DNA of 64,000 bases from an uncultured Chloroflexia bacterium (GCA_963783655.1 CAWAOA010000005.1:95331-159330), one strand, 5' to 3'; shown: positions 5,533 through 63,014, counted from the stretch's first letter. Program-made: numbers and translations. The notes: generated by a model not told the origin, from the sequence alone.

Positions 5533-5631
5533 AGAGCCTGGTCACGACACCTGCGGGAGCAGCCAATGCACTGGACTGTACGTATGCTTGACGCCGAGTG
5601 TCGCTCACGCTCCGGTCACGCCAACCATCTA

Positions 5632-6599
5632 TGAAAGCAATTGTACAAGACCGATATGGTTCACCAGATGTTCTCAAACTTGCCGAGGTGGAAAAACCGG
5701 CCCCCGGCGAGAATGAAGTACTGATCAAGGTTCATGCGGTATCCATCAATGGATCGGACTGGGAGGGACTGAGAGGAAAACCGCTGTATGCCCGCCTCGG
5801 GGGGCTGCGAAAACCAGGTAACAAGATCCTCGGATCGGACATCGCCGGGCGGGTAGAATCGGTTGGCGGCAAACGTAAAGCAATTTCAGCCAGGGGATGA
5901 AGTGTTTGGGGAAATGGCGGGGTATCGGGGTGGTTTTGCCGAGTATGCCTGCACTTCTGAAAAGCTCCTGGCGCGGAAACCGGCCGGCATGACCTTCGAG
6001 CAAGCAGCGGCCATCCCGCAGGCGGCGGTGATCGCCCTGCAAGGGATTCGCGATAAAGGACAGGTTCAGCCGGGACAAACAAGTTTTGATCAATGGCGCC
6101 GGTGGAAGTGCGGGTACCTTTGCCGTGCAGCTTGCCAAACTTTGCGGGGCTGAAGTGACCGGAGTGGATAACACGGGCAAGCTGGACTTTTTGCGCTCAC
6201 TCGGCGCAGACCATGTCATCGATTACACCCGGGAAGACTTCACCAGGAACGGAAAACAGTATGATCTCATCCTGGATGTGATCGCGCATCGTTCGGTTTT
6301 TGCCTTGAAGCGGGCGCTCAAGCCCAATGGAACGTATTTCGTCGTCGGAGGTTCTGTCGCGACGCTTTTCCAGGTGTTGTTCCTGGGGCCGTTGATACGA
6401 AGGTCCGAGGGCAAGAATTTGCGCGTCCTGGCGGTTCAGCGAAATCAACGAAGATCTGGTTGCGATAACGGAGCTTTGTGAAGCCGGCAAGATCGTCCCT
6501 GTGATCGACCGGCGGTATCCGTTACGTGAGGTTCCTGAAGCGCTCCGGTATGTTGGAGAAGGACGCGCCAAAGGGAAAGTCGTCATCACGGTGGCATAG
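5632..6599 (+). CDS. MDR-family NADPH:quinone oxidoreductase / zinc-type alcohol dehydrogenase-like; about 2 frameshifts
   Basis: MKAIVQDRYGSPDVLKLAEVEKPAPGENEVLIKVHAVSIN, Rossmann motif INGAGGSAGTFAVQLAK, and C-terminus GKIVPVIDRRYPLREVPEALRYVGEGRAKGKVVI. Confidence 0.75.
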
Positions 6600-14151: not shown

Positions 14152-14518
14152 ATCCACCTCCCAAATAGTCCTTGCCTTCCCCTGCCACCCGCCGGGTTCG
14201 TGCCAGGCATAGGACAACAAGTGCCACACGGGACCGGCGCCGAATGGCGCCGGTCTATGCTGCCTCAGTATAGGACTGCGCGAGATCAACCGGGCGTCAA
14301 GGGATGTCAAGAAATGGTCAAGCGGGCTGGGGGCGAAGCCAGTGCAGTTGATTTCAGCCCAATGACGTGGGGGATCGGGGGGACTTCAGTCGAACCGCGA
14401 TAAGTCAGCCGCGTAGCAGGGCACGCCGGCAGTACCGAGAGCCGGCGGCGCGACGGGATTGGCGTCCCGGCAGCAGGCTTGGCGGAGGGCAAGTTGTGGG
14501 ATCGGATCAGCAGGTGGA

Positions 14519-49086: not shown

Positions 49087-52000
49087 TCATCCCGTGGGCT
49101 GCGGCGCGTCCGCCCCCAGCAGCTCTTCGCGTCGAGCAGATCAGCGGTGGTGAACCCTTCGGTGAATTTGGCGTAGACTTCGCCGAGGAGGCGCCGGCCG
49201 CGTTCGGCGTCGTCCCCATGCCGGAGCGCGCGGCACAGGCCGGCGGCGGCTCGCAGCTCGAGCATCGGTAGCTTGACCTGCTGCGCCGCGCGTACGGCTT
49301 GCTCGAAGAAGCTTACGGCCTCGGCAGCCCGATCGGTCGAAAGCTTTAGCATGAGCTCGCCCGCAAGCCGGAGAAACTCGGCCGATAGAATGTCTTCGTT
49401 CTCGGGTGCAATCATCGAGCTTGCCTGCTCCAGCAGAGCCAATCCTTGCTCGGGCCTTCCCGCCTGGCCGCACACCTCGGCCTGGATGTAGAGGAGCAGC
49501 GGCCAGAATACGGGTGGGGTGTTCAAGCCCTGGTACTGGTCTATCCCCTGGCGGACCTGCGCCAGGCCCTCCTCGGCCCTGCCCATCCTGGCCAGCGCGG
49601 CACCCGTGCAGGCAGGTGGCGACGGCCGCCCAAACCTGAAACTCATGTTCCTCTGCCACTGTCAAGCGCAGCCTGAGCGCGTTCTCGGGCGAGCTCTGCC
49701 TCCCGCCTCCACAGGTGGAGCAGGCCGGCGTGGAACAGCGCATAGGCCATGCTGTACGGGATGATCCAGCCTCGTGGCCAGGGCCACGGCGTCGTTTGCC
49801 CGTTCGACGCGCGCGATCCGTGAAGCCCAGCATCCAGAGAAGCAGAGCGGACACGTTGAAGCGACTACACGCCGGGATATTGCCGAGCTGGAAACGACGC
49901 GTGCCGAGCCGTTCTGCGATCGTAGCCTGCCATCGCTCTTTCCAGATGCTCCATGCCCAACTTGACGTCCTTATGGAAGGCAGTAGTTGTAGCCCATCAC
50001 GAGATGTCCCTCGACTCGCATGCTCGCATCGTCGAGGCGCTCGGCCAGGCTCAGGATCCTCTCCCCCATCTGAGCGCCTTTCTCGAATTGGCCCAGGTAG
50101 ACGTAGAGGCTGGCCAATCCTCGCAGAACGGGGAAGAGCTCGGGAATCGTCTCCCGCGCCTCGGAGAGCTCCAGGGCGCGCGTGTAGGCTGCCTCGACCT
50201 CCGCCGTGTAGCCTTTGATGGCCAGCAGCGCCCGGGCCAGGCTGGTCTGCAACACGATCTCCTGCTGGACGCGCTCCGGCGTGGATGGGGTGGAGGAAAG
50301 GACGTTCAGCAGATCGGCGGTCAGATCGACCGTTGCGTGGTACCATCCGCGCGCATCATTGAGCAGCCACAGGCTGTCGACGAACTTGCCGAGCTGCTCC
50401 AGGTCCCTTTGCTCGACCCAGTAGCGCCAGGCGGTTCGCACGTTCTCGATCTCGGAGCCCAGCTCGCTCGAGCGCCGCCTCCCGTCGCGTGGCCGGTCAG
50501 GCGCTCCCATTGGTGCTGGGTGAAGCCGGCAAAGTAGGTGGCGTGTGCCCGGCGGGCGGCGGCGCTGAACGCCGGGGTCCGCATCCAGCCGTTCGGCGGC
50601 GTATTCCCGGATCGTTTCCAGCATCAGCAGCCGGGACTCTCCGGCTTCCGGATCCACCTGCCGGATCAGGCTTTTATCCACCAGGGAAGCCAGCCCATCG
50701 AGGACGTCCACTCCGTATCGTCCAGGCGCTCGAGCCCGCCGGCCACGCCTTCGACCGCCTCGAACGAGATGCCGCCGGCGAACACCGACAGCAGCTCGAA
50801 CAGCCGCTGCTCGCCCGGCGTCGAGCAGCTCATAGCTCCAGTCGATGGCGCCGCGCAGCGTCTGTTGGCGGACGGGCAGGTCGCGCGCCCCGCCGCGCAG
50901 CAGCCTCAACCGGCTCCCCAGCCGTTCGAGCAGCGCCTGCGGCGAAAACAGGCTGATCCGGGCCGCGGCGAGCTCGATCGCCAGCGGCAGGCCGTCCAGC
51001 CGCACGCAGATCTCGGCGACCGCCGGCGCGTTCTCGTTGGTGACCTGGAAATCCGGCTTCACCGCCTGGGCGCGCTCGATGAACAAGCGCACCGCCTCAT
51101 ACTGGGTGAGTTGCTCGAGGGACTGCCGGGCTTGAGATCGACGCTGGGCAGCGCGAGCGGGGGGACCGGGAAGACATATTCGCCGCGCACGTGCAGCGCT
51201 TCCCGGCTGGTCACCAGCAGCTTCAGACTGCGGGCAATCTCGGAGCAGTTCCACCACCCTGGGCGCCGCCGCCGTGACCTGCTCGAAGTTGTCGAGGAGC
51301 AGCAGCATCTGCTTGGCTCGCAGCTGTGCCTTCAGCTCGTCGAGCAGCGGTCGGTCGCTGGTCTCCTTCAGGCCAACGCGTCTGGGCAATCGCGGCGAGG
51401 ACGGATTCCGGATCCCTGATGGGCGCCAGGTCCACAAAATAAACCCCATCCTCGAAGCGATCGATCAGCTCCGCGGCCGCCTGCAGCGCCATGCGGGTCT
51501 TGCCGATGCCGCCCGGGCCCGGTGAGGGTCAGCAGGCGCACGTCGTCGGAACGCAGGCGCGCGACGATCTCGCCCAGCTCCGCCTCCCGTCCGATGAGCG
51601 CCGTGGGCTGCGCCGGGAGGTTCGGTGGTGGGGGGCCGTCCGCTGCCCGGAGGGGTGGGAAGTCCGCCGGGAGATCGGGCGCAGTGAGCTGGTAGATCCG
51701 CTCGGGTGAGGCCATGTCTTTGAGGTGATGGACGCCCAGGTCGCGCAGTCCCAGGCCGGGTGGCAGGAAATCCCGCGCCAGCGCTTCGACGGCGGCTGAG
51801 ACGAGCACCTGTCCGCCGTGGGCGGCCGCCATCAGACGGGCGGCCCGGCTGAGCGTGAGGCTCGAGGCGTACTGGCCGGCGCGCAGGTCGGCCTCGTTCA
51901 CCTCTGCCGGCCCGGCATGGATGCCCATGCGGGCGAGCAAGCGGCTCGATGTCCTGCCACTTCTCGGCAAGCAGCGCCCGCTGCGCGGCAGCTGCCGCCG

Positions 52001-52240
52001 CCAGGGCGGCAGTTGCCGTAGCGAAGGCCGCGCAGAAGCGTCGCCCACGATCTGGAAGATGTAGCCGCCGTTGTCCTGGATGGCGTTCTCCAGCAGGCTA
52101 CGGTGGCGGGCCAGGGCTGCCGGCATGGCGGCCGGATATTGCTGCCAGAGCGCCGTGCTGCCCTGGATGTCAGTGAAGAGGAAGATGGTGGTGCCCGCAG
52201 GTGGGATGCGAGGCTGCGCGCCTGGCGAAGGGTGAGACAT
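49087..52240 (-). CDS. adenylate/guanylate cyclase (class III) domain fused to an AAA/NB-ARC ATPase and TPR repeats (about 1050 aa); several frameshifts
   Basis: N-terminus ...TIFLFTDIQGSTALW...YIFQIVGDA...; Walker A in the middle ORF; C-terminus ...AKFTEGFTTADLLDAKELLGADAPQPTG recovered by a 1-nt frame correction. Confidence 0.7.
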
Positions 52241-52379: not shown

Positions 52380-52898
52380 TTAGCGTGGAGCTTGCTCGTC
52401 CACCGAAAGCCCGTACCCTCCTGCCGCTACAATCAGGTGTTCGAGCGCCCCAGTGGAAAACGGGTAACCATCCACAGCAACATGAACGGTGACGCTATCC
52501 GCGGTCACGCTGACGCTCCACCATTCCCAATCCCGATCGCGCATGCGATCCAACCACGACCCAAACATCCATGCCAAGCTGGCCCAGGTGGAGCGGTCAG
52601 AGCGTATTTGCAATATTTCGTCTTTGGAATAGGTGCGAAAGGTGCTCGTAAGCCAATCAGGAACAAAGGCGTTCCATCGCTCGTCGCTGGGCCAATCATC
52701 GCCGCCATACTCTGCAATGGTGAACATTACCGAGCGCAGTCGCTCCACGATCTCGGGCGGGTTCTTACCGAGAAAGTGAATCGTCGCATACATGCCCGGC
52801 GGCCGCTCCCCTGCCTGGTAGTGCAGCAGCCGGTACTGTTCTTCACTTGCAACCATCTGTCCCACCTCCCATCCCAGCCGATGGCTGTGCTTTTCCAC
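52380..52898 (-). CDS. hypothetical protein (172 aa, Trp-rich, acidic)
   Basis: Intact ORF. No recognised domain. Confidence 0.45.
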   Translation of the reverse strand: MEKHSHRLGWEVGQMVASEEQYRLLHYQAGERPPGMYATIHFLGKNPPEIVERLRSVMFTIAEYGGDDWPSDERWNAFVPDWLTSTFRTYSKDEILQIRSDRSTWASLAWMFGSWLDRMRDRDWEWWSVSVTADSVTVHVAVDGYPFSTGALEHLIVAAGGYGLSVDEQAPR

Positions 52899-52955
52899 TG
52901 CCCTGGAAGGAGTATTGTATCGAGCGTTCGCCCGCCATTACGAAGGTGGGTGATC

Positions 52956-53249
52956 TCATTGGTTTGTGGAATTTGCGGGTCCGGCTGTGTTGCTGCTGCC
53001 ACTCAGGTACACCCGAAGTCGATCCAGCAGGGCAGCGGCCTCGTCATGAAGGGTGTGCTCGGAGATCCTTAGAGGCGACGCTTCGTTCTGGGTCGTCCAG
53101 CCTTCCCAGTACGAATCTAGCGCCGCAAAGAGTGTATCTAGAATCCGATACAGCTCGTGATCCATGCCTGGCGGTTCGGCTTTGAATGCCTCAAAGAAGC
53201 GCGACTGGAATTCATTTGCCGAGATACGGTTCCTACACGAAATCCTCAA
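52956..53249 (-). CDS. small hypothetical protein (97 aa), immunity-protein-like
   Basis: Intact small acidic ORF in tandem with others. No confident domain. Confidence 0.35.
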   Translation of the reverse strand: MRISCRNRISANEFQSRFFEAFKAEPPGMDHELYRILDTLFAALDSYWEGWTTQNEASPLRISEHTLHDEAAALLDRLRVYLSGSSNTAGPANSTNQ

Positions 53250-53462
53250 TCAGGTCGTGCTACTCTTGAGGTTTCACTGTCAATCGCCTCCGCCCAAGAT
53301 CCCTGTCGTAATGAGACGCAGTGCTTGCGCATCACTCAACTTCCAACTGGGCATCCGCAACCGGACTTTGCCCGCCTTCGTAAACAGCACGGCAAGAGCC
53401 ACTTTCTCCAGAGCACAGGTGGCATGGGTGGAATCAATCGGTCGAACGCGCTGATTCAAGCG

Positions 53463-53800
53463 TTATCCCGGATAACGACGCGTGTGATCGCTGGGTCCTT
53501 GGTACAGAACGCGGTACTGCCCCGCGAGTTCAACCTGAAGCAGCTTCCAGAGAGCCTCGCCTTCTTCCTCGAAAGCCTTCTCCTCGGCTTCACTGGCGAA
53601 GCCGGAAGAAGCGGGATCGTCCCAGTTCAGAATCGCATCGAAGGCATCAGCCCACTTGATCAATCGATCGCGCGGTCTCATCACTCAGCGGTAGGGTGTG
53701 CGGGTCAATGTTATTTGGCTCATGAGGTGCTTCCCACCACAACGGCCACGTTCGATAGTCTGCCATCAACGTAATAGTGTCCATTTGTCGCTCTCCAACA
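53463..53800 (-). CDS. small hypothetical protein, frameshifted (MDTITLMADYRTWPLWWE... joined to ...LIKWADAFDAILNWDDPASS...)
   Basis: Two adjoining frames with continuous sense. Confidence 0.3.
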
Positions 53801-53828
53801 TCACAGCCTAGGGCCAACTCACTTCCCC

Positions 53829-54383
53829 TCAGTTTTCGTAAACCAGGGCGCCGGCCCCGAGTGGCCCGCCGCCGACCCTAACGGCGCATTGCGGATTGTG
53901 CCCTGCGGGGGCAGTATGGCGAAGGGGGTTGCCGCCGCCATACCCGTACCCGCTGCCGCACGTCCCCCGGCCAGGGGTCGCTGTCAGGAACACGCCGAAC
54001 TCCGATCGCAGGTAGCGCGCCCGCAGGAACAGCGAGCCGAGGTCTCGTCCGCTACTCGCCCGGTGTAGCCAAACGGCTCTCCGCCGTCCCCTTCCAGCGG
54101 CACGCCGTAGGGGTCGAAGCGGCGCGCCGCCAGCACCTGCCCCGTCAGCATCCGTCTCCTGGCGCACGCTGTTCAGGGCATCCCGACCCGACAGGTGGCG
54201 CCAAGTCCCGCCGCCATCCTCGCTGGCCAGCGGGCTGTCCCCGAGACCATAGACGTAGGTCGTCTGGTTGTCCGCCCGCGCCTGCGCCAGCACCGTCACC
54301 AAGGGCGCGGCCATGTCCAGCGTGACGTGACGGCTGGCCTGCGGCCCACGCAATGCCATCACCGGTCGCTGAACCCCGGCCAC
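53829..54383 (-). pseudogene. fragment resembling the C-terminal RHS repeat-associated core region (...LFLRARY(Y)...GYGYGGGNP...); probable remnant
   Basis: ...TTYVYGLGDSPLA..., ...DADGAG...APLRP..., ...GSLFLRARYLRSEFGVFL...GYGYGGGNPL compared with the RHS core consensus ...LYYxRARYYDPxxGRFxxxDP...NxYxYxxxNP; needs frameshifts. Confidence 0.35.
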
Positions 54384-55051
54384 GCCACCCAGGGGCTTCC
54401 GCCCTCAAGCTTGAAGATGGCGAACATGTCCGGCGCCCGATAGCCAACACCATCCAGGATGAGGGTGCGCTCGACCCCCTGCCCTTTGGCCAGCTTATCA
54501 CAGGCGCGACCGCTGCTGTGATTGATGGCAGACACGATAAATTGGGCGGCCGGCCAGACGAACTCCTGCATGCACTCGTACCGTTCGGGCGAGACCGGGC
54601 CGTATACCACGTATTCGGGCGGTCCGCGGCGTTCGACCACCGTCTCCAGGGTCACGGGGATGAGGAAGCTGATCCCCAGCGTCTTCAGCTTGTTGCCGGA
54701 GAAGGTGGCTGTGCCGCATTGTCCGGGCCCCCGGGGGTATTGGCAGCCAAAGCGCAGAATTCGATCAAAGTTTTGAAACGGGTTGATTTCCTGCGTGACG
54801 GTGATGGTGCTGGCGTCGACAAAGGGCAGGGTCTGCAGCGTGCTGATCACCTCTGCTTCGGTCGAGACATCCGGCACCAGCCCGTACCAGCAGGGCGGGG
54901 CGCAGGGTTCATCCGTCAGCAAACTGCGATCCGCCAGCGCCGGATCCATGGGGAAGACCCGCTCCTCGCGCGGGCTGGCAGCCGGCGGTCAGCAGCAGGA
55001 CGAGCAGGGAGAGCACGAGCCACCAGCGGGCGTAGCGAAGGATAGTTGTCA
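54359..55051 (-). CDS. hypothetical lipoprotein; frameshift near 54955
   Basis: Lipobox signal MTTILRYARWWLVLSLLVLLLTAGCQ..., then ...PCAPPCWYGL.... Confidence 0.45.
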
Positions 55052-55361
55052 TGCCTCACCTCTCAGCGGATGGCCGCGATCTCCGCGAGCACAAACGCCT
55101 TCCGCAGCGGGCCGATGTCCCTAATGACCCGGACCTAAGCCGACATAGTAATCCGGGTAGATGGTGGTCGCGAACGCCTCCGCCCAGTCCTCGATCAAGG
55201 GGGCAAAATTGCTGTTGTGGGCGTAGTTCGGGTCCATTCTCATTCACCTCCTCCTGGGTAGCTCATTGAGGGCAGCCTGTGCCATAGACCTGGCCGGGCC
55301 TTGTTTCCCACGCTCCTTCCTTACTGTGCCCGAAATGCGTCTGGTTGCGGCGAGCGGAGCG

Positions 55362-55715
55362 CTACGGTGAGAAGAGCCTCCATAGGGGCGCTACCACGGC
55401 TATAAACCCGAGGAACCAGAAACCGGCACGCGTCACCCGCTCCGGGCCGAAGATCGAATTGCGCGGGGCTTTCCGGGCCACGAGCAGAAACACGATTCCG
55501 GGAACAAACCGGGACAGAAAATCGACAAGTTTCTCATTGGTCATGCTGCCCGCTTTCTGGTTGATCGCGTGTCCCAGCCGTGCGGCTTGACGCCCGGCCC
55601 CACTCCGCTTCGCTCGGGGACTATAGTTGTAGCTGTACCAGAACTCGGCCACCTTCTCCTGGCCACCGGAGCGCCGCTGCATGAGCGCGGTCAGGCGGGC
55701 GGCGGCGTGGTACAC
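55362..55715 (-). CDS. hypothetical protein with a C-terminal 2-TM region; possibly the frameshifted tail of a longer gene starting near 56385
   Basis: ...LVDFLSRFVPGIVFLLVARK...FWFLGFIAVVAPLW. Confidence 0.3.
   Translation of the reverse strand: MYHAAARLTALMQRRSGGQEKVAEFWYSYNYSPRAKRSGAGRQAARLGHAINQKAGSMTNEKLVDFLSRFVPGIVFLLVARKAPRNSIFGPERVTRAGFWFLGFIAVVAPLWRLFSP
55613..55640. repeat. direct repeat CGGGGACTATAGT(T/C)GTAGC(T/C)GTA; second copy at 56594-56620
   Basis: Two copies about 980 bp apart. Read on the minus strand they encode related peptides: YSYNYSPRAKRSGAG versus DYGYDYSPRSGAG. Confidence 0.6.
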
Positions 55716-55871
55716 GGTCGGGCGTGTAGTGATCCCAGCGACTATGTGGCCACGCCGACCAATAGCCAGGTATCCTGTTCCAGGGCCGAGCTGAGCATCG
55801 CGATCACATATTCATAGGCCGCATGGTGCTCGGACGGCGGCGCCGCGGCGGTCTTCTCCGCCACGTACTTC

Positions 55872-56385
55872 TCATTCAGCGGTGAGTATGGGGATCAGAC
55901 GTCGCATATCGGCCTGATCAAGCCAACCCAGGCCGTAGCCCTGCGCCCAGTAGGGCCAGCCAGATTCGGCCCACTGCTCGGCCGTGCGGTGCTCGATTTC
56001 GGGCAACAGCAGCGCCCCGAACGGTCTGCCCAGCCACAACTCCCGGAACAGCCCCTGCCCCAATGCGTACCCGCGCAGCGCATCCAGGGTCGCCACCGCG
56101 CCGGCCATGCCGGGGACCGGCCGGCAGTAGTGGCAGGCCAGGATCATCATCCAAAAATGCAGCCTGCCCAGCTCCGTGTCGTACTCTGTCTCTTCATGGC
56201 CCAGCTCATCTGCATAGTGGCCGAAGTAGCCCACTCGCTCCCACACCGCCGGTTGGCTGTGCCCGATCGCCTGCGCCACCTGCCGCAAGGCGCTGAGATC
56301 GTGTCGCTGCAGGGGTGCCAGCAGCGGTTCCAGTTGGGAGCGAAAGCCGACGAGATCGAAGTAAAAGGCGATGCGAGCGGGCATA
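55872..56385 (-). CDS. hypothetical protein (about 170 aa; MPARIAFYFDLVGFRSQLEPLL...)
   Basis: The ORF-track ORF runs to 56597. The first Met after the repeat-encoded region was taken as the start. Confidence 0.35.
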
Positions 56386-56674
56386 GTGCACCTCACCTTC
56401 TCCTGATTATCGCCCGAGCGTGCGCTAGCTGGGCGAGCAGCGGCGCCAGCCTGGCTCTTCCAACCGCACGGGCCGCTGATGGTCGTCCCATCCGGGCTGC
56501 GGGCCTGCAGGCCGGTGGCCAGTGCGGGCTGCAGATCCACAACGTAGGTGGTAGTGACGCCGCCCGTCGCCTGCCAGCAGCGCAGCCCCTCCCGCACCGC
56601 TACGGGGACTATAGTCGTAGCCGTAGTCCGTGGTCAGCGGGCTCGACACCACCCGACTCCGCCGGTTCCCGTTG

Positions 56675-57125
56675 TCAAGCGATAGCTTTCTCACTCCGAC
56701 AAAGGGAGATGTGGGTCACCGCTTGATGATCCCGATCCAGCGCCGCTTCATCGAGTTCCCTCATCTTGTCTCGGATCAATTCGGTAAGGCGGCGAACTTC
56801 CGCTGAGCCTTGCGCGGGCAGACGGCTGTACTTGCCGAGCTCCCTGATTTGGATCGTCAACATGCACCAGTTCCGCTTCATCTACGAACTCGAGCCAGCG
56901 ATGATCGGGAACACCGACCTGAATCAGTCGGCTCCGATCCTTCCAGAGTACCCACGCTTGGCGTTCCATCTCGACCAGATACCAGTTCACCACAGCTTCT
57001 ACAGAATCAGAACTAGCAAGGCTCATGGCCTCGGTCCTTCTCTCAGGACTGCCAAAGCGCTCGGTGACGCTTATTTCGTCAGTGTTTGGCCGGCTACCGG
57101 ATACCAGGGTATCTCTGGCCACCAC
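56675..57125 (-). CDS. small hypothetical protein, frameshifted (MSLASSDSVEAVVNWYLVEMERQAWVLWKD...)
   Basis: Two adjoining frames. Confidence 0.3.
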
Positions 57126-57210
57126 TCACTGACGGGAATGAAAGCGATTGCATCGGTGTCAAACGTGCGCCGCCGGCTCTCTTTCGCACGCCGTTGTTGC
57201 ATGGAATCGG

Positions 57211-58299
57211 TCATGGCAGGGGTACCCCCAACTGCTGCAAGAGTGCCTCGAACTGTTGTACGTTCTGCGGGTTCATCTCCGGTAGGTCCCGCAGCCTGGG
57301 CAGCCAGTCCTGTGCGAATTCGGAGACACGTCGAACATACTTCGGCTGCGTCATCCGCTGAATATCCCCCATCGCGCTGGAGTATCTTCTCCAGCGTCTG
57401 GTGCGGGTACTTCGTCTGAAGTTCACCCAGCTTCGTGTTCACTTCGTGGAGCCAGCTTGAATCATCTCCACCCCCGGAGCGCCTGTCCCTAGACTGATTG
57501 GGGTCCAAGGGCGGCATGCCCGGGAATTGCAGACCACCGCCGCTCAGCTTATGCAGATGCTCGGCCAATGGACGTGCAGGATCTCTGGCGGCCAGGGAGA
57601 GAGGCGCCGCACCTCTCCGGCACGCCAGCCTACAGCCGGTCATCTAGCGACTCTGCCGTCCCGAAAAGCCTGGCGATGCTTTGGGTTGCCCAACTCCATC
57701 TCGAACACTTCCCATTGCCCAGCCTGGTTAAGGACGGCCATGTTCCGGGGGCCTGAGACATCATTGGGGAATTGCCACAGGATGTGGGAGCCATCCGGGT
57801 TGGAGAACCCTTCGCCATCCGCCTGCAGGATCCCGCCCAACGTCCCCCACAGCTCCCCCTGGATTGCCTGTATCGGCTCCCAGTTGTCCGTGTGAAGCGC
57901 GCCCGAAATCTCAAAGGCGTAGATCACCTTCACGGTCGGCAAGTACCCGGCGAGCCATGCCGCGGCTGAGCGCGGGTATGCTTCGTCCAGCTCGTCGAGT
58001 AACTCCTGGAGTTCCTCTTCCGCTAGCGACTGTGGGGCGACGCGATGGCGTTCCACGATCGCCAATTCTCGCCGGTGCTTGTCTAGGATGGTGATTTGCT
58101 CCCACGCTTCCGTTGCGGCTTTTTCCCGCCTGATGTTCGCCCTCAGTCTGTCCAGCAGGGTGACTTGCTCCTGCCCCATCGTTGCGGGTTCATCCACCCT
58201 GATGCTAGCCGGCAGCCTGTCAGCCCGCAGTCGACCTTCCAGGGCCGACGCAGGAACGTGCGATTCGTTCGGCGTCAGAAGTCTGGTGCAGTAGCTCAT
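57211..58299 (-). CDS. hypothetical protein(s); one roughly 330-aa gene with 2 frameshifts, or two or three small genes
   Basis: ORFs 57640-58299, 57071-57643 and 57211-57426 are contiguous with sense carried across frames. Confidence 0.3.
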
Positions 58300-58319
58300 C
58301 TTCCTGCTCGCTCCGTTGC

Positions 58320-58847
58320 TTAGCCGTGCAAATTTCGATCAGGCAGCGAGGCGTCAGCCGCTCGTGCTCTCCACTTGATTTCCCGGATCAGTTCGTCCCG
58401 CTCCTGGATTTGTGGACCGATGAGAAAACTGGGCATGAGCGTGCGGGAGTACAACCACCCGTAGACCCGGTGGAGCGGCGTGAGTCCCCGCGTACGGACC
58501 AGCACAAAGCCCCAGGGTACCCGACCTGCCCCCACATCCACGACGTCGCCCCACGGCACCTTCGCCCGAGCAAAGAGAAAGCTCTGCACTGCCAGATGGT
58601 CATCGGCCACCCACACGGTCGGATAACTGTTCATCAGTGCTGCACCTACCTGCCCGCCTCCAAACAGGATCCCGAGCGACAGGCAGCCCAGTGTTGCCAT
58701 TGACGCATCGGCCGGAGCGTCGCTGCCCATCGCGTATACGGGCAGCCCAATCGCAACTGCGCAGGAACCCAGCAGCGCCAGAGCGCCAACGACCTGGTTG
58801 ACGCGGGCGGCCACCCAGGCTCCCCCCGCATAGGTGTATTCCTTCAT
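58320..58847 (-). CDS. membrane protein with 2-4 TM helices and a bacterial-PH-like (YdbT/bPH_2-like) C-terminal domain
   Basis: Hydrophobic N-terminus, then ...VWVADDHLAVQSFLFARAKVPWGDVVDV...GFVLVRTRG.... Confidence 0.4.
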   Translation of the reverse strand: MKEYTYAGGAWVAARVNQVVGALALLGSCAVAIGLPVYAMGSDAPADASMATLGCLSLGILFGGGQVGAALMNSYPTVWVADDHLAVQSFLFARAKVPWGDVVDVGAGRVPWGFVLVRTRGLTPLHRVYGWLYSRTLMPSFLIGPQIQERDELIREIKWRARAADASLPDRNLHG

Positions 58848-59205
58848 CTGGACCCCCAGACAGGATTCATCCAGAAGTCGTGCGCGACAACTCGTTGGAG
58901 ATCGTCAAGTACTCTGACAGGCGAGGTCATGAACGGCAGGGGATGGCCACCTTGCGCGGCATCTCGGTAGACCTCGACCACAGCTACAGCGGCTCCCTTC
59001 TGGCGGCGCACTGCCCTACCCACGCACGGCTTGCGGCGACGACCAGAACCGCCTGCCAGTATACCCGGCGTGACGCCGCTTTGCTTTAGTACTTCGGCCC
59101 TAACTGGCTGGAGCGCAGCGCCGGTGCGCCCATTCTCTTGTTTCTCTCACTCAATCGTCTATAATGCCGCTTCGACCTGCCCGTACCGGAATCAGGATTA
59201 TCGCA

Positions 59206-60131
59206 TGCAACCATGGCAGCACTACCTGCAACCGCAGAGCGTGGCCGAGGCGCTGGAGTACCTGCGGTCGGCGCCGCAGCCGGCGCGAGTCATCGCCGGC
59301 GGCACGGATTTGCTGATCGACATCCAGCAGGGCCGGCAGAGCCCCGTCCAGACCCTCGTCGATATATCGGCCATCCCCGAGATGTGCGAGATCGCCGAGC
59401 GTGATGGGAGCCTGTACGTCGGGGCCGCCGCCACACACTACAGCATCATCAGCAGCGAGCCGGTGTGGCGCCACGCGGCGTGCCTGGCCGAGGGGTGCGA
59501 GCTGATCGGCGGCCCGCAGGTGCGCAACGTGGCCACCATCGGCGGTAATGTGGCGCACGGCCTGCCCGCCGGCGACGGCACGATCGGGCTCCTGGCGCTC
59601 GACGCCGAAGCGCTGGTCGCCCGGCCGGACGGCCGCAACTGGCTGCCAATGCGTGACCTGTTCCTGTCGCCGGGCCATACGATCTTCGACGACGAGGCGG
59701 CGCTGCTCGTGGCTTTCCGGCTGCCGCTGATGAAGCCGGGCGAGGGGTCCGCCTTTCACCGGATCATGCGGCCGCAAGGGATCGCCATCGCCATCCTGAA
59801 CATGGCCGTCTGGGTGCGCGCGGGGGCGTCCGGAGAGATCGAGGACGTTCGCCTGGCGGTTGGCCCTGCCGGGTTGACCCCGTTCCGCGCTCACCGGACC
59901 GAGGGGGCGCTGCGCGGGCGGCGGCCGGACGCGGACGTTCTCGCTGCGGCGGCGTCTGAGCTGGCGTCTGAGGCACAGGTGCGCACCAGCCCGCATCGCG
60001 CCAGCAAGGAGTACCGCCATCACCTGCTGCCGGTGGTGTTAGGGCGGGTGATGGAGTTGGCGTTGAGCAGGGCGGCGGTCGTCACGCGATCACGGAAGCG
60101 TGACGCTACAGGGGAGAGGCGTGGGGAATAG
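59206..60131 (+). CDS. coxM: xanthine dehydrogenase/CO dehydrogenase family FAD-binding subunit
   Basis: ...ARVIAGGTDLLIDIQQG...NVATIGGNVAHGLPAGD... (FAD_binding_5 plus CO_deh_flav_C). Confidence 0.8.
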
Positions 60132-60589
60132 GTGATGCCGGAAATCAAGCTGTGGGTCAACGGAGAAGCCAGGCAGACCGAGGTCACGGGCGGCGAGATG
60201 CTGTCGGACGTGCTGCGCAACCGGCTGGGACTGACCGGCACCAAGGTCGCGTGCGGCGAGGCGGAGTGCGGCTCGTGCACGGTACTGCTCGACGGCTCGC
60301 CCGTTATGTCTTGTACGCTGCCCGCCATGAAGGCAGCGGGCAGGCAGGTCGTCACGGTAGAAGGGCTGGCGAACGGGCAGTTGCACCCGCTGCAGGAGGC
60401 TTTCATCGCGCACGGCGCCGTGCAGTGCGGCTTCTGTATCCCCGGCCAGTTGATGATGGGGGCGGCGCTGCTGGCAGCGAGCCTGACCCGACCGAGGAAC
60501 AGATCCGCTACGCCTTCAAGGACACGCTCTGCCGCTGCGGCACCTACCCGGCGATCGTACGGGCGGTGCAGGACGCGGGGCGCAAGCTG
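60132..60589 (+). CDS. coxS: (2Fe-2S)-binding small subunit; frameshift near 60480; no stop codon separates it from the large-subunit domain in the recovered frame
   Basis: ...CGEAECGSCTVLLDG...VQCGFCIPGQLM...CRCGTY.... Confidence 0.75.
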
Positions 60590-62946
60590 CGAACCGGCGA
60601 ACAGATCCGGGCGCCCGAGCTCGAGCCGGGAGCGCCGGCCAACCTGCGCATCGTCGGTCACGTGGTCGCCCGGCCGGACGCCTTCCTCAAGGTGACCGGC
60701 GCCGCGAAGTTCACCGACGACTACACCTTCCCGGAGATGCTCCACGCCCGCGCGCTGCGGGCCATGGTCCCACACGCCATCGTGACCCGCCTGGACGTGA
60801 CCCGCGCCCAACGCCTGCCGGGCGTCCACGCCGTCCTGACCGCGGCGGACGTGCCGGGACGGAAGAACCACGGCCTGGTGACCTTCGATTGGCCGGTGCT
60901 CGTGGGCGTGGGCGAGAAGGTCCGCACGGTGGGCGATGCGGTGGCGATCGTCGCGGCCGACACCCGCGAGATCGCGACGGAAGCGCTCGCCCTGATCGAA
61001 GTGGCGTACGAGCAGCTACCGGTTGTGAGCGATCCCCGCGCCGGCGCTGGAGCCCGACGCGCTCAAGATTCACGAGTCGGGCAATCTGCTCAAGCACATC
61101 TACCTGAGCAAGGGGGACATCGGCGAGGGGTTTGCGCAGGCGGACACCATCTTTGAGGAGACGTACTTCACGCCGGCCCACGATCACGTCTTCATGGAGC
61201 CCGAATGCTCGATCGCCCGGCCGGTCGAAGACGGCAGGCTGGAGATCTACGTCGGCTCGCAGATCGCCTACTCCGACAGGAGCCAGGTGGCGGCGTCGCT
61301 GGACATGCCCCAGGCGGACGTGCGCATCGTCGGGACGCTGGTGGGCGGCGGCTTCGGGGGCAAGGAGGACATCGCCGGGCAGATCCATGCAGCCATGCTG
61401 GCGCGCGCCACCGGGCGGCCGGTCAAGCTGCTGTTCGATCGCCAGGAGAGCCTGATCGTCCACCCGAAGCGGCACGCCACCGAGATCCGCGTGCGGCTGG
61501 GGTGCAAGCAGGACGGCACGCTCGTGGCCGCGCAGACCGAGCTGATCGGCGACACCGGCGCCTACGCCTCGCTGGGCGAGAAGGTGATGACGCGCGCCAC
61601 CACGCACTCCACCGGCCCCTACGTCATCCCGAACGTCAAGTCCGACTGCTTCGCCACCTACACCAACAACCCGCCCGCCGGCGCCTTCCGCGGGTTTGGC
61701 GTGCTCCAGTCCGCCTTCGCCATCGAGTCGGCGATGGACGAGCTGGCCGAGCAGCTGGGCATGGACCCGATCGAGATCCGCCGGCTCAACGCCCTGCGCA
61801 CCGGCACAAAGACGAATACCGGCCAGCTTCTGACGGAGAGCGTGGGGCTGCCCGAGTGTATCGAGAGGATGGAAGCGGAGCTGCGCCGCGTATGCCCCGG
61901 CGACCCGTTCGCTCCCAGCCCGGTCGAAGGCTACCCGAACCGCCGCCGGGCCTGGGGCGTGGCGCTGGGCTACAAGAACACCGGGACTGGGCGGGGGCGC
62001 TCCCGACAAGGCCGCAGCCGAGATCGAGCTGTATCCGGACGGCGCCGTCGAGGTGCGCACGTCGTCGGCCGAGATCGGCCAGGGGCTGGTCACGGTGCTG
62101 CAGATGGTCGCCGCCGAGGAGCTGGGCCTGCCGCAGCACCGGGTACGCGTCCTGCTCTCCGACACCGACCGCACGCCCGACGGCGGCCCGACCACGGCGT
62201 CGCGCCAGACCTACGTGTCGGGCAACGCCGTGCGCAAGGTCGCCCAGTTGCTGCGTGCGTCGATCAACTCCACCCTCGCCGAGGCGTTCGACTGCCCGCC
62301 CGACGAGATCGAGTACATCGAGGGGCTGGCGCAGGTACGCGAGCGCAAGGTGTCGCTGGGAGAGGTGGTCCCGCTGATGCTGGCGGAAGGGCGCAGCCCG
62401 GTGGTGGGGTACGAGTACTGGGCGCCGGCCACGCAGCCGATCGTCGGCGGAACCGACATCCATTTCGCCTTCTCCTTTGCGGCGCAGGCCGCCGAGGTCG
62501 AGGTGGATACCGACACCGGAGAGGTGCGCGTGCTGCGCATGATCGTGGCCGACGACGTGGGCAAGGCGATCAACCCGCTGGGGCTGCGCGGCCAGATCGA
62601 GGGCGGCGTGATCATGGGGGTCGGCCAGGCGCTGACGGAAGAGTTCATCGTGAAGGACGGGGTGGTCGTCACCGACCGGCTCGGCCGCTACCGGATGCCG
62701 GGCATCACCCATACGCCCGAGATCATCCCGATCGTCGTGGAGCACCCGACCGCCGAGGGGCCGTACGGCGCCAAGGGGGTGGGCGAGATCAGCATCATCC
62801 CGACGCCGGTGTCGATCACGAACGCCGTCTACAACGCCTGCGGCGTCCGCATCCGGCGGCTGCCGATCGACCAGGATTGGCTGGCGCTGGAGCTGCGCCG
62901 GCGCAGGACCGGGGATCCAGGCGATGGCCGGCATGGGATCGGGTGA
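60590..62946 (+). CDS. coxL: molybdopterin-binding large subunit of a xanthine dehydrogenase/aldehyde oxidoreductase family enzyme; at least 3 frameshifts
   Basis: ...LKVTGAAKFTDDYTFPEMLHARALRAMVPHA..., ...GGGFGGKED..., ...RTPDGGPTTASRQTY..., ...GPYGAKGVGEI.... Confidence 0.8.
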
Positions 62947-63014
62947 TGATGAGAGTTGAGATCTGGTCGGATATCGTGTGCCCCTGGTGTTACATCGGCC
63001 GGGATCGGGGCTGA
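62946..63014 (+). pseudogene. 22-codon remnant of a DsbA/FrnE-like thioredoxin-fold gene (MMRVEIWSDIVCPWCYIGRDRG*)
   Basis: Contains the N-terminal CPWCY(I)G active-site motif of DsbA-family proteins and stops after 22 aa. Confidence 0.4.

Follow-up and report, generated by a model that had tools for sequence, protein, structure and literature searches.

Orphan rhs-CT/rhsI (and cdiA-CT/cdiI) modules lying downstream of full-length rhs or cdiA genes were described by Poole et al. (2011; PMC3150448), and heterogeneous poly-immunity loci by Zhang et al. (2012; PMC3482391). The latter study pairs Tox-ColicinD mainly with ImmD, RHS-linked and Chloroflexi cases included, and reports extended poly-immunity loci (at least four genes) only from Proteobacteria, Bacteroidetes, Firmicutes and Actinobacteria. 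Here we compare both with an island at about 52.3-58.9 kb in a stretch of 64,000 nucleotides (nt) from an uncultured Chloroflexia bacterium (GCA_963783655.1 CAWAOA010000005.1:95331-159330; the whole stretch is called the window and positions are counted from its first letter). The island is very probably a degenerate orphan rhs-CT/immunity array that amounts to a heterogeneous poly-immunity locus. It contains rhs scars, the tail of a toxin, a Pfam-level immunity domain and genes whose homologs occupy immunity positions.

Like the orphan rhs-CT/rhsI modules (PMC3150448), the island holds 5'-truncated rhs fragments that keep a conserved part (scars C and B, and scar A at the DNA level only), with a small immunity open reading frame (ORF) after each, in a tandem, co-directional arrangement of foreign base composition. 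Unlike those modules, none of its modules retains C-terminal (CT) toxin sequence after the DPxG motif, a single 30-residue tail being all that is left of a toxin segment, and two of the scars stop short of the core. The array adjoins no full-length rhs, and the lineage, judged by the nearest Rhs relatives, appears Chloroflexota-like rather than proteobacterial. A complete Rhs protein is likewise missing, as there is no YD-repeat shell, no C-terminal toxin domain and only a below-cutoff match to TIGR03696. The likeness to the poly-immunity loci (PMC3482391) lies in a tandem string of structurally unrelated immunity genes, ImmD included, with no linked complete toxin: five co-directional genes, one assigned by Pfam and four by homolog context. 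Unlike those loci, the island still shows rhs scars and a toxin tail that reveal its origin, and four of its five immunity families lie outside Pfam.

An earlier note on this DNA had proposed an orphan toxin C-terminus/immunity array. The array stands, in degenerate form, but the toxin halves are gone and what remains is an immunity-only relic. The alternative offered there, a different and unrecognised system, is not needed. The features that carry this reading are as follows (U1, U2 and U5 are our labels for genes).

52380-52898, minus strand: U1, orphan immunity-type gene (from the context of its homolog in locus L019)
52956-53249, minus strand: colicin-D-immunity (ImmD) family gene, by PF09204
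53463-53817, minus strand: U2, CdiI/RhsI-type immunity gene with one frameshift at about 53658
53877-54323, minus strand: scar C, degenerate RHS-repeat-associated core within ORF 53829-54383
54359-55052, minus strand: lipoprotein immunity-type gene (from homolog context and lipobox)
55145-55234, minus strand: last ~30 codons of an Rhs C-terminal HExxH metallopeptidase toxin, DPNYAHNSNFAPLIEDWAEAFATTIYPDYY
~55600-55640, minus strand: scar A, tiny piece with the YSPR..AEW motif of Rhs relatives, recognised as a DNA repeat
55742-56384, minus strand: U5, immunity-type gene of ~213 aa with one frameshift at 55880
56481-56622, minus strand: scar B, rhs fragment of 35-55 residues from upstream of the core (YDYSPRSGA / GLRCWQATGGVTTTYVVDLQPALATGLQARSPDGTT)

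Rhs Remnants

ORF 53829-54383, which the earlier note had likened to the Rhs core, gave as called a weak match to TIGR03696 (Rhs_assc_core; E 0.0047, 17.4 bits, model positions 28-76). After frame repair, scar C within it spans the whole model (E 7e-7, 29.6 bits), still below the cutoff of 32.5; the intact relative P0007 reaches 62.8 bits. Aligned to the intact relatives P0007 and P0012 with frameshifts allowed, scar C showed 94/135 identities and four frameshifts within ~190 nt, at 54137, 54033, 53980 and 53952. These form two compensating pairs (+1/-1 and -1/+1), so that the 184-aa ORF stays open and is called as a protein (P0001). The relatives P0013, P0014, P0016 and P0008 are shifted in the same region. 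The frame-repaired query retrieved 22 short Rhs-type proteins. The autoproteolysis motif of scar C reads APAGH, where the relatives carry DPTGH or DPSGH, and a stop follows ~22 codons past the motif, leaving scar C without a toxin domain. Judged by its sequence, scar C is clearly a homologous but degenerate Rhs core.

The YD-like text that had been noticed near 56594-56700 also proved to be of Rhs origin. In tblastn searches the N-termini of the Rhs fragments P0010 and P0013 matched scar B at 56481-56588 with 71-72% identity (E 4e-10 and 7.5e-11), and frameshift-aware alignment gave 40/58 identical residues with one frameshift at 56592. The homology of scar B ends at 56481, ~100 nt before U5, and the first 25 residues of scar C are paralogous to it. 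Both scar B and scar A end upstream of the core.

Scar A is linked to scar B by a 23-nt repeat, identical at 21/23 positions, at 55615-55637 (scar A) and 56603-56625 (scar B), which bears out the peptide-level repeats reported earlier; a 17-mer search gave 2 matches against 0.09 expected by chance. The motif of scar A was found only in the Rhs relatives P0005, P0007, P0010 and P0018. As a protein-level Rhs match scar A was rejected (score 38-41, with shuffled scores up to 45).

In these four closest Rhs relatives an in-frame 10-residue motif, Y[SN]PRS.AEWD, lies inside YD motifs, interrupting RRY|DPYG, Y|DGDG and DPY|GVPL; it is present twice in P0010 and occurs in both window scars (55600-55640 and 56590-56625). 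It is absent from the loci of the Anaerolineae metagenome-assembled genome (MAG) described below and from ENA contig L020. Gene conversion may have spread the motif as a loop insertion specific to the lineage.

No RHS_repeat match (PF05593 or TIGR01643) was obtained for any island ORF. Across the 64-kb window there was neither a full-length rhs, which had been expected to lie outside it, nor any further Rhs/YD sequence, and the 3543-aa Rhs of locus L003 matched the window only at 53901-54320.

Immunity-Type Genes

ORF 52956-53249 matched PF09204 (Colicin_immun; E 3.2e-12, 47.3 bits against a gathering score of 22) over profile positions 14-88 of 88, which makes it, at the level of Pfam, a predicted member of the colicin-D-immunity (ImmD) family. 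A search upstream of this gene for a remnant of a ColD-type toxin found none, and a PDB sequence search found no sequence-level match between the ORF and solved structures.

The other four genes are assigned through the conserved gene context of their homologs, which in every case sit directly after an Rhs or CdiA toxin segment or overlap its stop codon (lipoprotein, L002/L020; U5, L014/L017; U1, L019; U2, Pantoea and Ralstonia). This context suggests that U1, U2, U5 and the lipoprotein are immunity genes. No Pfam or NCBIfam model was found for any of the four families, and the toxins next to the homologs of U5, U1 and U2 had no match in the window. Of the small acidic or Trp-rich immunity proteins proposed earlier, the immunity type is thus supported by PF09204 and homolog context, but the supposed protein at 55872-56385 is only part of a ~213-aa gene.

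U5 is that gene. An exhaustive search gave 40 representatives of ~210 aa that start at the same Met, and the small ORF 55742-55864 corresponds to the last 40 residues of these proteins, so U5 is one gene running from 56384 to 55742. Over its full length, this small ORF included, 89/207 residues are identical to P0144. In L014 and L017 the U5 homolog follows an Rhs-core fragment and a C-terminal domain of ~122 aa; the two domains are 45% identical (E 8e-13), and the tail of this domain survives on the short contig L016. None of the 31 U5 family members tested had a Pfam match, and the family had no profile match among PDB sequences.

The merged product of U2 has 106 aa, of which residues 1-95 align across the junction with two kinds of small ORF at 44-47% identity. 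One of these homologs, on the Pantoea plasmid NZ_CP155067.1, has a 4-nt overlap with the stop of a CdiA gene, whose product (WP_345830195.1) carries a VENN motif and PF21483 (CdiA_helical, E 3e-27). On Ralstonia megaplasmids the second kind overlaps the stop codon of a 7.9-kb gene. The toxin C-termini next to the two homologs are 52% identical over 127 aa.

U1, whose true start is probably Met15 (~52856), is identical at 80/158 residues (51%) to L019 842-1351. In L019 103-861, whose 3' end this ORF overlaps, an Rhs-core end (PQSLNRYAYGLNNPVKFADPTGH; TIGR03696 positions 50-76, E 2.8e-5) is followed by a C-terminal toxin domain. A structure prediction for 52380-52898 had been recommended; the single-sequence AlphaFold2 (AF2) model of U1 was too poor to use, with a predicted local distance difference test (pLDDT) score of 52.

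Several Rhs/CdiA C-terminal toxin domains in these relatives have no Pfam model, namely the ~122-aa NHWEL-motif domain (L014 1448-1816 and L017 439-813), the HExxH...EDWAEAF peptidase-like domain (L002 9449-11191), the domain of L019 103-861, and the domain common to Pantoea CdiA and the giant Ralstonia protein (L021 ~5600-6004).

Toxin Tail and Lipoprotein

The peptide DPNYAHNSNFAPLIEDWAEAFATTIYPDYY aligns with the C-terminal end of a 580-aa toxin in L002 (13/17 identical) and with that of the L020 toxin (63% over 30 aa, E 1.6e-8). The HELGHVWD catalytic part of these relatives was not found in the window.

The lipoprotein gene noted earlier was recovered with its signal peptide and lipobox LLTAGC at 54978-55052; its body (54359-54949) is in another frame, the frameshift falling between 54950 and 54977. 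Identity reaches 39% over 195 aa with L002 11160-11840 (E 3e-41) and 50% over 88 aa with L020 9256-9873. Both homologs directly follow an Rhs core plus HExxH toxin, a position that points to the lipoprotein as a putative immunity gene. The orphan Rhs ORF before the L002 homolog has a C-terminal domain carrying HELGHVWD and ...EDWAEAFATYVYPYYY. ENA contig L020 has the same order as the window, with HExxH toxin, lipoprotein homolog and a 5'-truncated rhs, and this rhs begins at the same point as that of the window (TLD.AAPLVTVLA).

An Intact Array in Relatives

In the genome collection, relatives of the window's Rhs sequence came from Anaerolineae MAGs only. In one of these (CAZYXV010000015.1, uncultured; loci L002/L003) a 3543-aa Rhs is encoded at L003 731-11362, followed downstream by Rhs-core copies at 14300, 16276 and 19353, to which L002 adds copies at 6574, 10001 and 14776. 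At least six orphan Rhs-core modules thus lie within ~25 kb, each in an ORF of 450-850 aa. Going by this gene order, the MAG locus is a classical arrangement of full-length rhs plus orphan modules. Beta-propeller (PD40/PQQ) genes fill some of the immunity positions in this array. The Rhs core of the MAG is ~60% identical to the repaired scar C, and the MAG has the same pair of HExxH toxin and lipoprotein immunity gene. It differs from the island in that its 3543-aa Rhs and its orphan modules are intact, with toxin domains of 200-400 aa.

Base Composition and Assembly

The minus-strand-only island of small ORFs was confirmed by coding strand, base composition and reading frame. Its guanine-plus-cytosine (GC) content is 0.55-0.66, compared with 0.66-0.73 in the flanks, and a plot of GC at third codon positions (GC3) by frame backs coding in the listed frames, with sudden frame switches within several apparent genes. 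A search of the window found no tRNA, Rfam family, integrase or flanking repeats, and no excess of promoter- or terminator-like sites was seen.

Indels occur at about one per kb across the assembly, including in the flanking housekeeping genes (window 59031-63014 and 49141-52240). In the flanking operon of the xanthine-dehydrogenase (xdh) family, the Fe-S subunit covers its models over residues 4-118 only and the Mo subunit is spread across at least three frames. The FAD subunit and the adenylate-cyclase-type regulator on the other flank are likewise frameshifted. This operon, divergent from the array and adjoining it, had been labelled a cox cluster; the label is not specific, since the top scores are to xanthine/aldehyde dehydrogenase models, those of the xanthine-dehydrogenase family being best, and all fall below equivalog cutoffs.

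The public protein set holds the frameshifted ORF 53832-54359 (P0001) as well as the protein of U7 (P0023; see below), and the presence of P0001 means that the errors belong to the deposited assembly. Because the housekeeping genes share the indel rate, single frameshifts in island genes are weak evidence of decay. Several of the small ORFs are halves of one gene, probably split by an indel-prone assembly. The earlier count of about 11 small ORFs was right that small ORFs are present and too high in number, as U5, U2 and the lipoprotein gene are each split by a single frameshift. For annotation, the lesson is that strings of small ORFs in error-prone assemblies may be ordinary genes split in halves.

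Other Genes of the Island

Four further minus-strand features of the island have no assigned part in the array.

55362-55544, minus strand: 60-aa two-helix membrane ORF, the 3' part of ORF 55362-55715, with GC3 support for coding
56675-57430, minus strand: coding-like stretch of ~0.8 kb, multiply frameshifted according to GC3 frame switches
57640-58299, minus strand: U7, an intact ORF of a widespread ~200-aa family
58320-58847, minus strand: U8, a protein with two transmembrane segments and a weak bacterial-PH hint (PF10756, E 0.03, below cutoff)

The 60-aa ORF had no family match and was not present in the fetched relative loci. For 56675-57430, neither the ORF as called nor any of three stitched versions matched the SUKH-4 family (PF14435) significantly, and this assignment was rejected: E values were 0.04-0.36 and scores 11.3-14.5 bits against a cutoff of 25.5, with only the last ~35 profile positions covered. 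The immunity-family profile searches that had been suggested were therefore productive for 52956-53249 (PF09204) but not significant for SUKH-4.

U7 has 127 homologs and its family has no Pfam or NCBIfam model. The homologs adjoin integrases, DUF932 and ParE/Phd genes in integrative elements, not Rhs. AF2 gives U7 a confident model (pLDDT 91.6), for which PDB and BFVD yielded no significant fold neighbour, and the family had no profile match among PDB sequences. U7 could be a new broad-range immunity protein or a mobile-element protein. U8 had no NCBIfam match. In tblastn searches, the pieces of 56675-57430, U7, U8 and the ImmD gene had no plasmid match.

Origin of the Island and Competing Explanations

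A history of displacement and then deletion would account for the array. Orphan rhs C-terminal toxin/immunity modules would pile up downstream of a full-length rhs as new cassettes displace old ones by recombination, and at least three 5'-truncated rhs 3' ends, now scars A, B and C, would once have been present. Later deletions would have taken the toxin-coding parts and spared the immunity genes downstream. At least five mutually unrelated immunity genes (U5, the lipoprotein gene, U2, ColD-immunity and U1) would then be left in a row, all pointing the same way and with no toxin linked to them. We infer the order of these events, and since no full-length rhs lies beside the array, its history downstream of rhs is drawn from the relatives only. 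The GC dip counts as support for a foreign origin. The surviving immunity proteins may still protect against those Rhs/CdiA toxins of neighbouring strains that match them, and each protein would bind the toxin domain cognate to it. The targets would be a ColD-type tRNase, a HExxH peptidase and three further toxin domains of unassigned activity; the peptidase is taken to act outside the cytoplasm because its immunity protein is a lipoprotein.

Several observations weigh against a degenerate orphan array that still serves as a poly-immunity locus. No full-length rhs lies upstream, and the array abuts the divergent xdh-family operon. If the frameshifts in U5, U2 and the lipoprotein gene are real and not assembly errors, these genes are dead. 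The context of U1 comes from a single contig of 3.1 kb (L019). A third of the island (~2.2 kb), made up of U7, U8 and 56675-57430, is not tied to toxins or immunity by any result, and the homologs of U7 occupy mobile-element contexts without Rhs.

The main rival holds that the whole island, its immunity genes included, is non-functional rhs wreckage that drifts towards deletion and gives no protection. The frameshifts in U5 (55880), U2 (~53658), the lipoprotein gene (54950-54977), scar B (56592) and, four in number, scar C can be read in this way, as can the mutation of DPxG to APAG, the lack of any complete toxin and the lack of an excess of promoter-like sites. The flanking housekeeping genes are, however, equally indel-ridden, and assembly error is therefore the simplest account of the single frameshifts; moreover, U1, the ColD-immunity gene and U7 are intact, GC3 periodicity is preserved, and the alignments of U5, U2 and the lipoprotein to their homologs (39-47% identity) run over the full length without an internal stop. 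The housekeeping indel rate and these end-to-end alignments of the split genes leave complete wreckage a disfavoured and rather unlikely explanation. The rhs fragments might instead form a silent store of cassettes, acting as homology arms for recombination into a full-length rhs elsewhere and thereby switching its toxin. Scars B and C do keep 35-150 residues of the conserved region that mediates exchange, and in a Salmonella study orphan modules were reportedly re-activated by recombination. A usable store is rejected because no toxin-coding sequence is left to mobilise; scar C also carries its four frameshifts in ~190 nt along with the mutated cleavage motif, and a crossover in scar A or B, both of which stop short of the core, would deliver no toxin. 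We regard this explanation as highly improbable.

It is more improbable still that the island is an unrelated accessory or defence island, such as toxin-antitoxin or mobile-element cargo, that merely acquired an Rhs fragment. The low GC of the island and the U7 homologs that adjoin ParE/Phd pairs, integrases and DUF932 would fit such an origin, but five genes are independently linked to polymorphic toxins and occur together with three separate rhs scars and a toxin tail, the window lacks an integrase, tRNA and flanking repeats, and there is no antitoxin or defence family among the island's profile matches. We therefore retain the degenerate orphan rhs-CT/immunity array as the best explanation. 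More tentatively, with somewhat less confidence than would favour the idea, we suggest that the locus may be an intermediate on the way from an orphan toxin/immunity array to an immunity-only island by loss of the toxin halves, in a Chloroflexota-like lineage and with four immunity families and at least three toxin domains outside Pfam.

Implications

The type of locus is itself already known, and the lineage is unusual for it. What goes a little further here is the visibility of rhs scars in an immunity-only island, an extended locus in a host apparently outside the four phyla of PMC3482391, and immunity and toxin families without models. The island offers four uncharacterised candidate pairs: U1 with the L019 toxin, U2 with the C-terminal toxin of the Pantoea-Ralstonia CdiA type, U5 with the ~122-aa NHWEL domain, and the lipoprotein with the HExxH-EDWAEAF peptidase. 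With its rhs scars still visible, the locus is a concrete example of how poly-immunity islands would arise from orphan cassette arrays, and it supports the view that immunity genes outlive their toxins.

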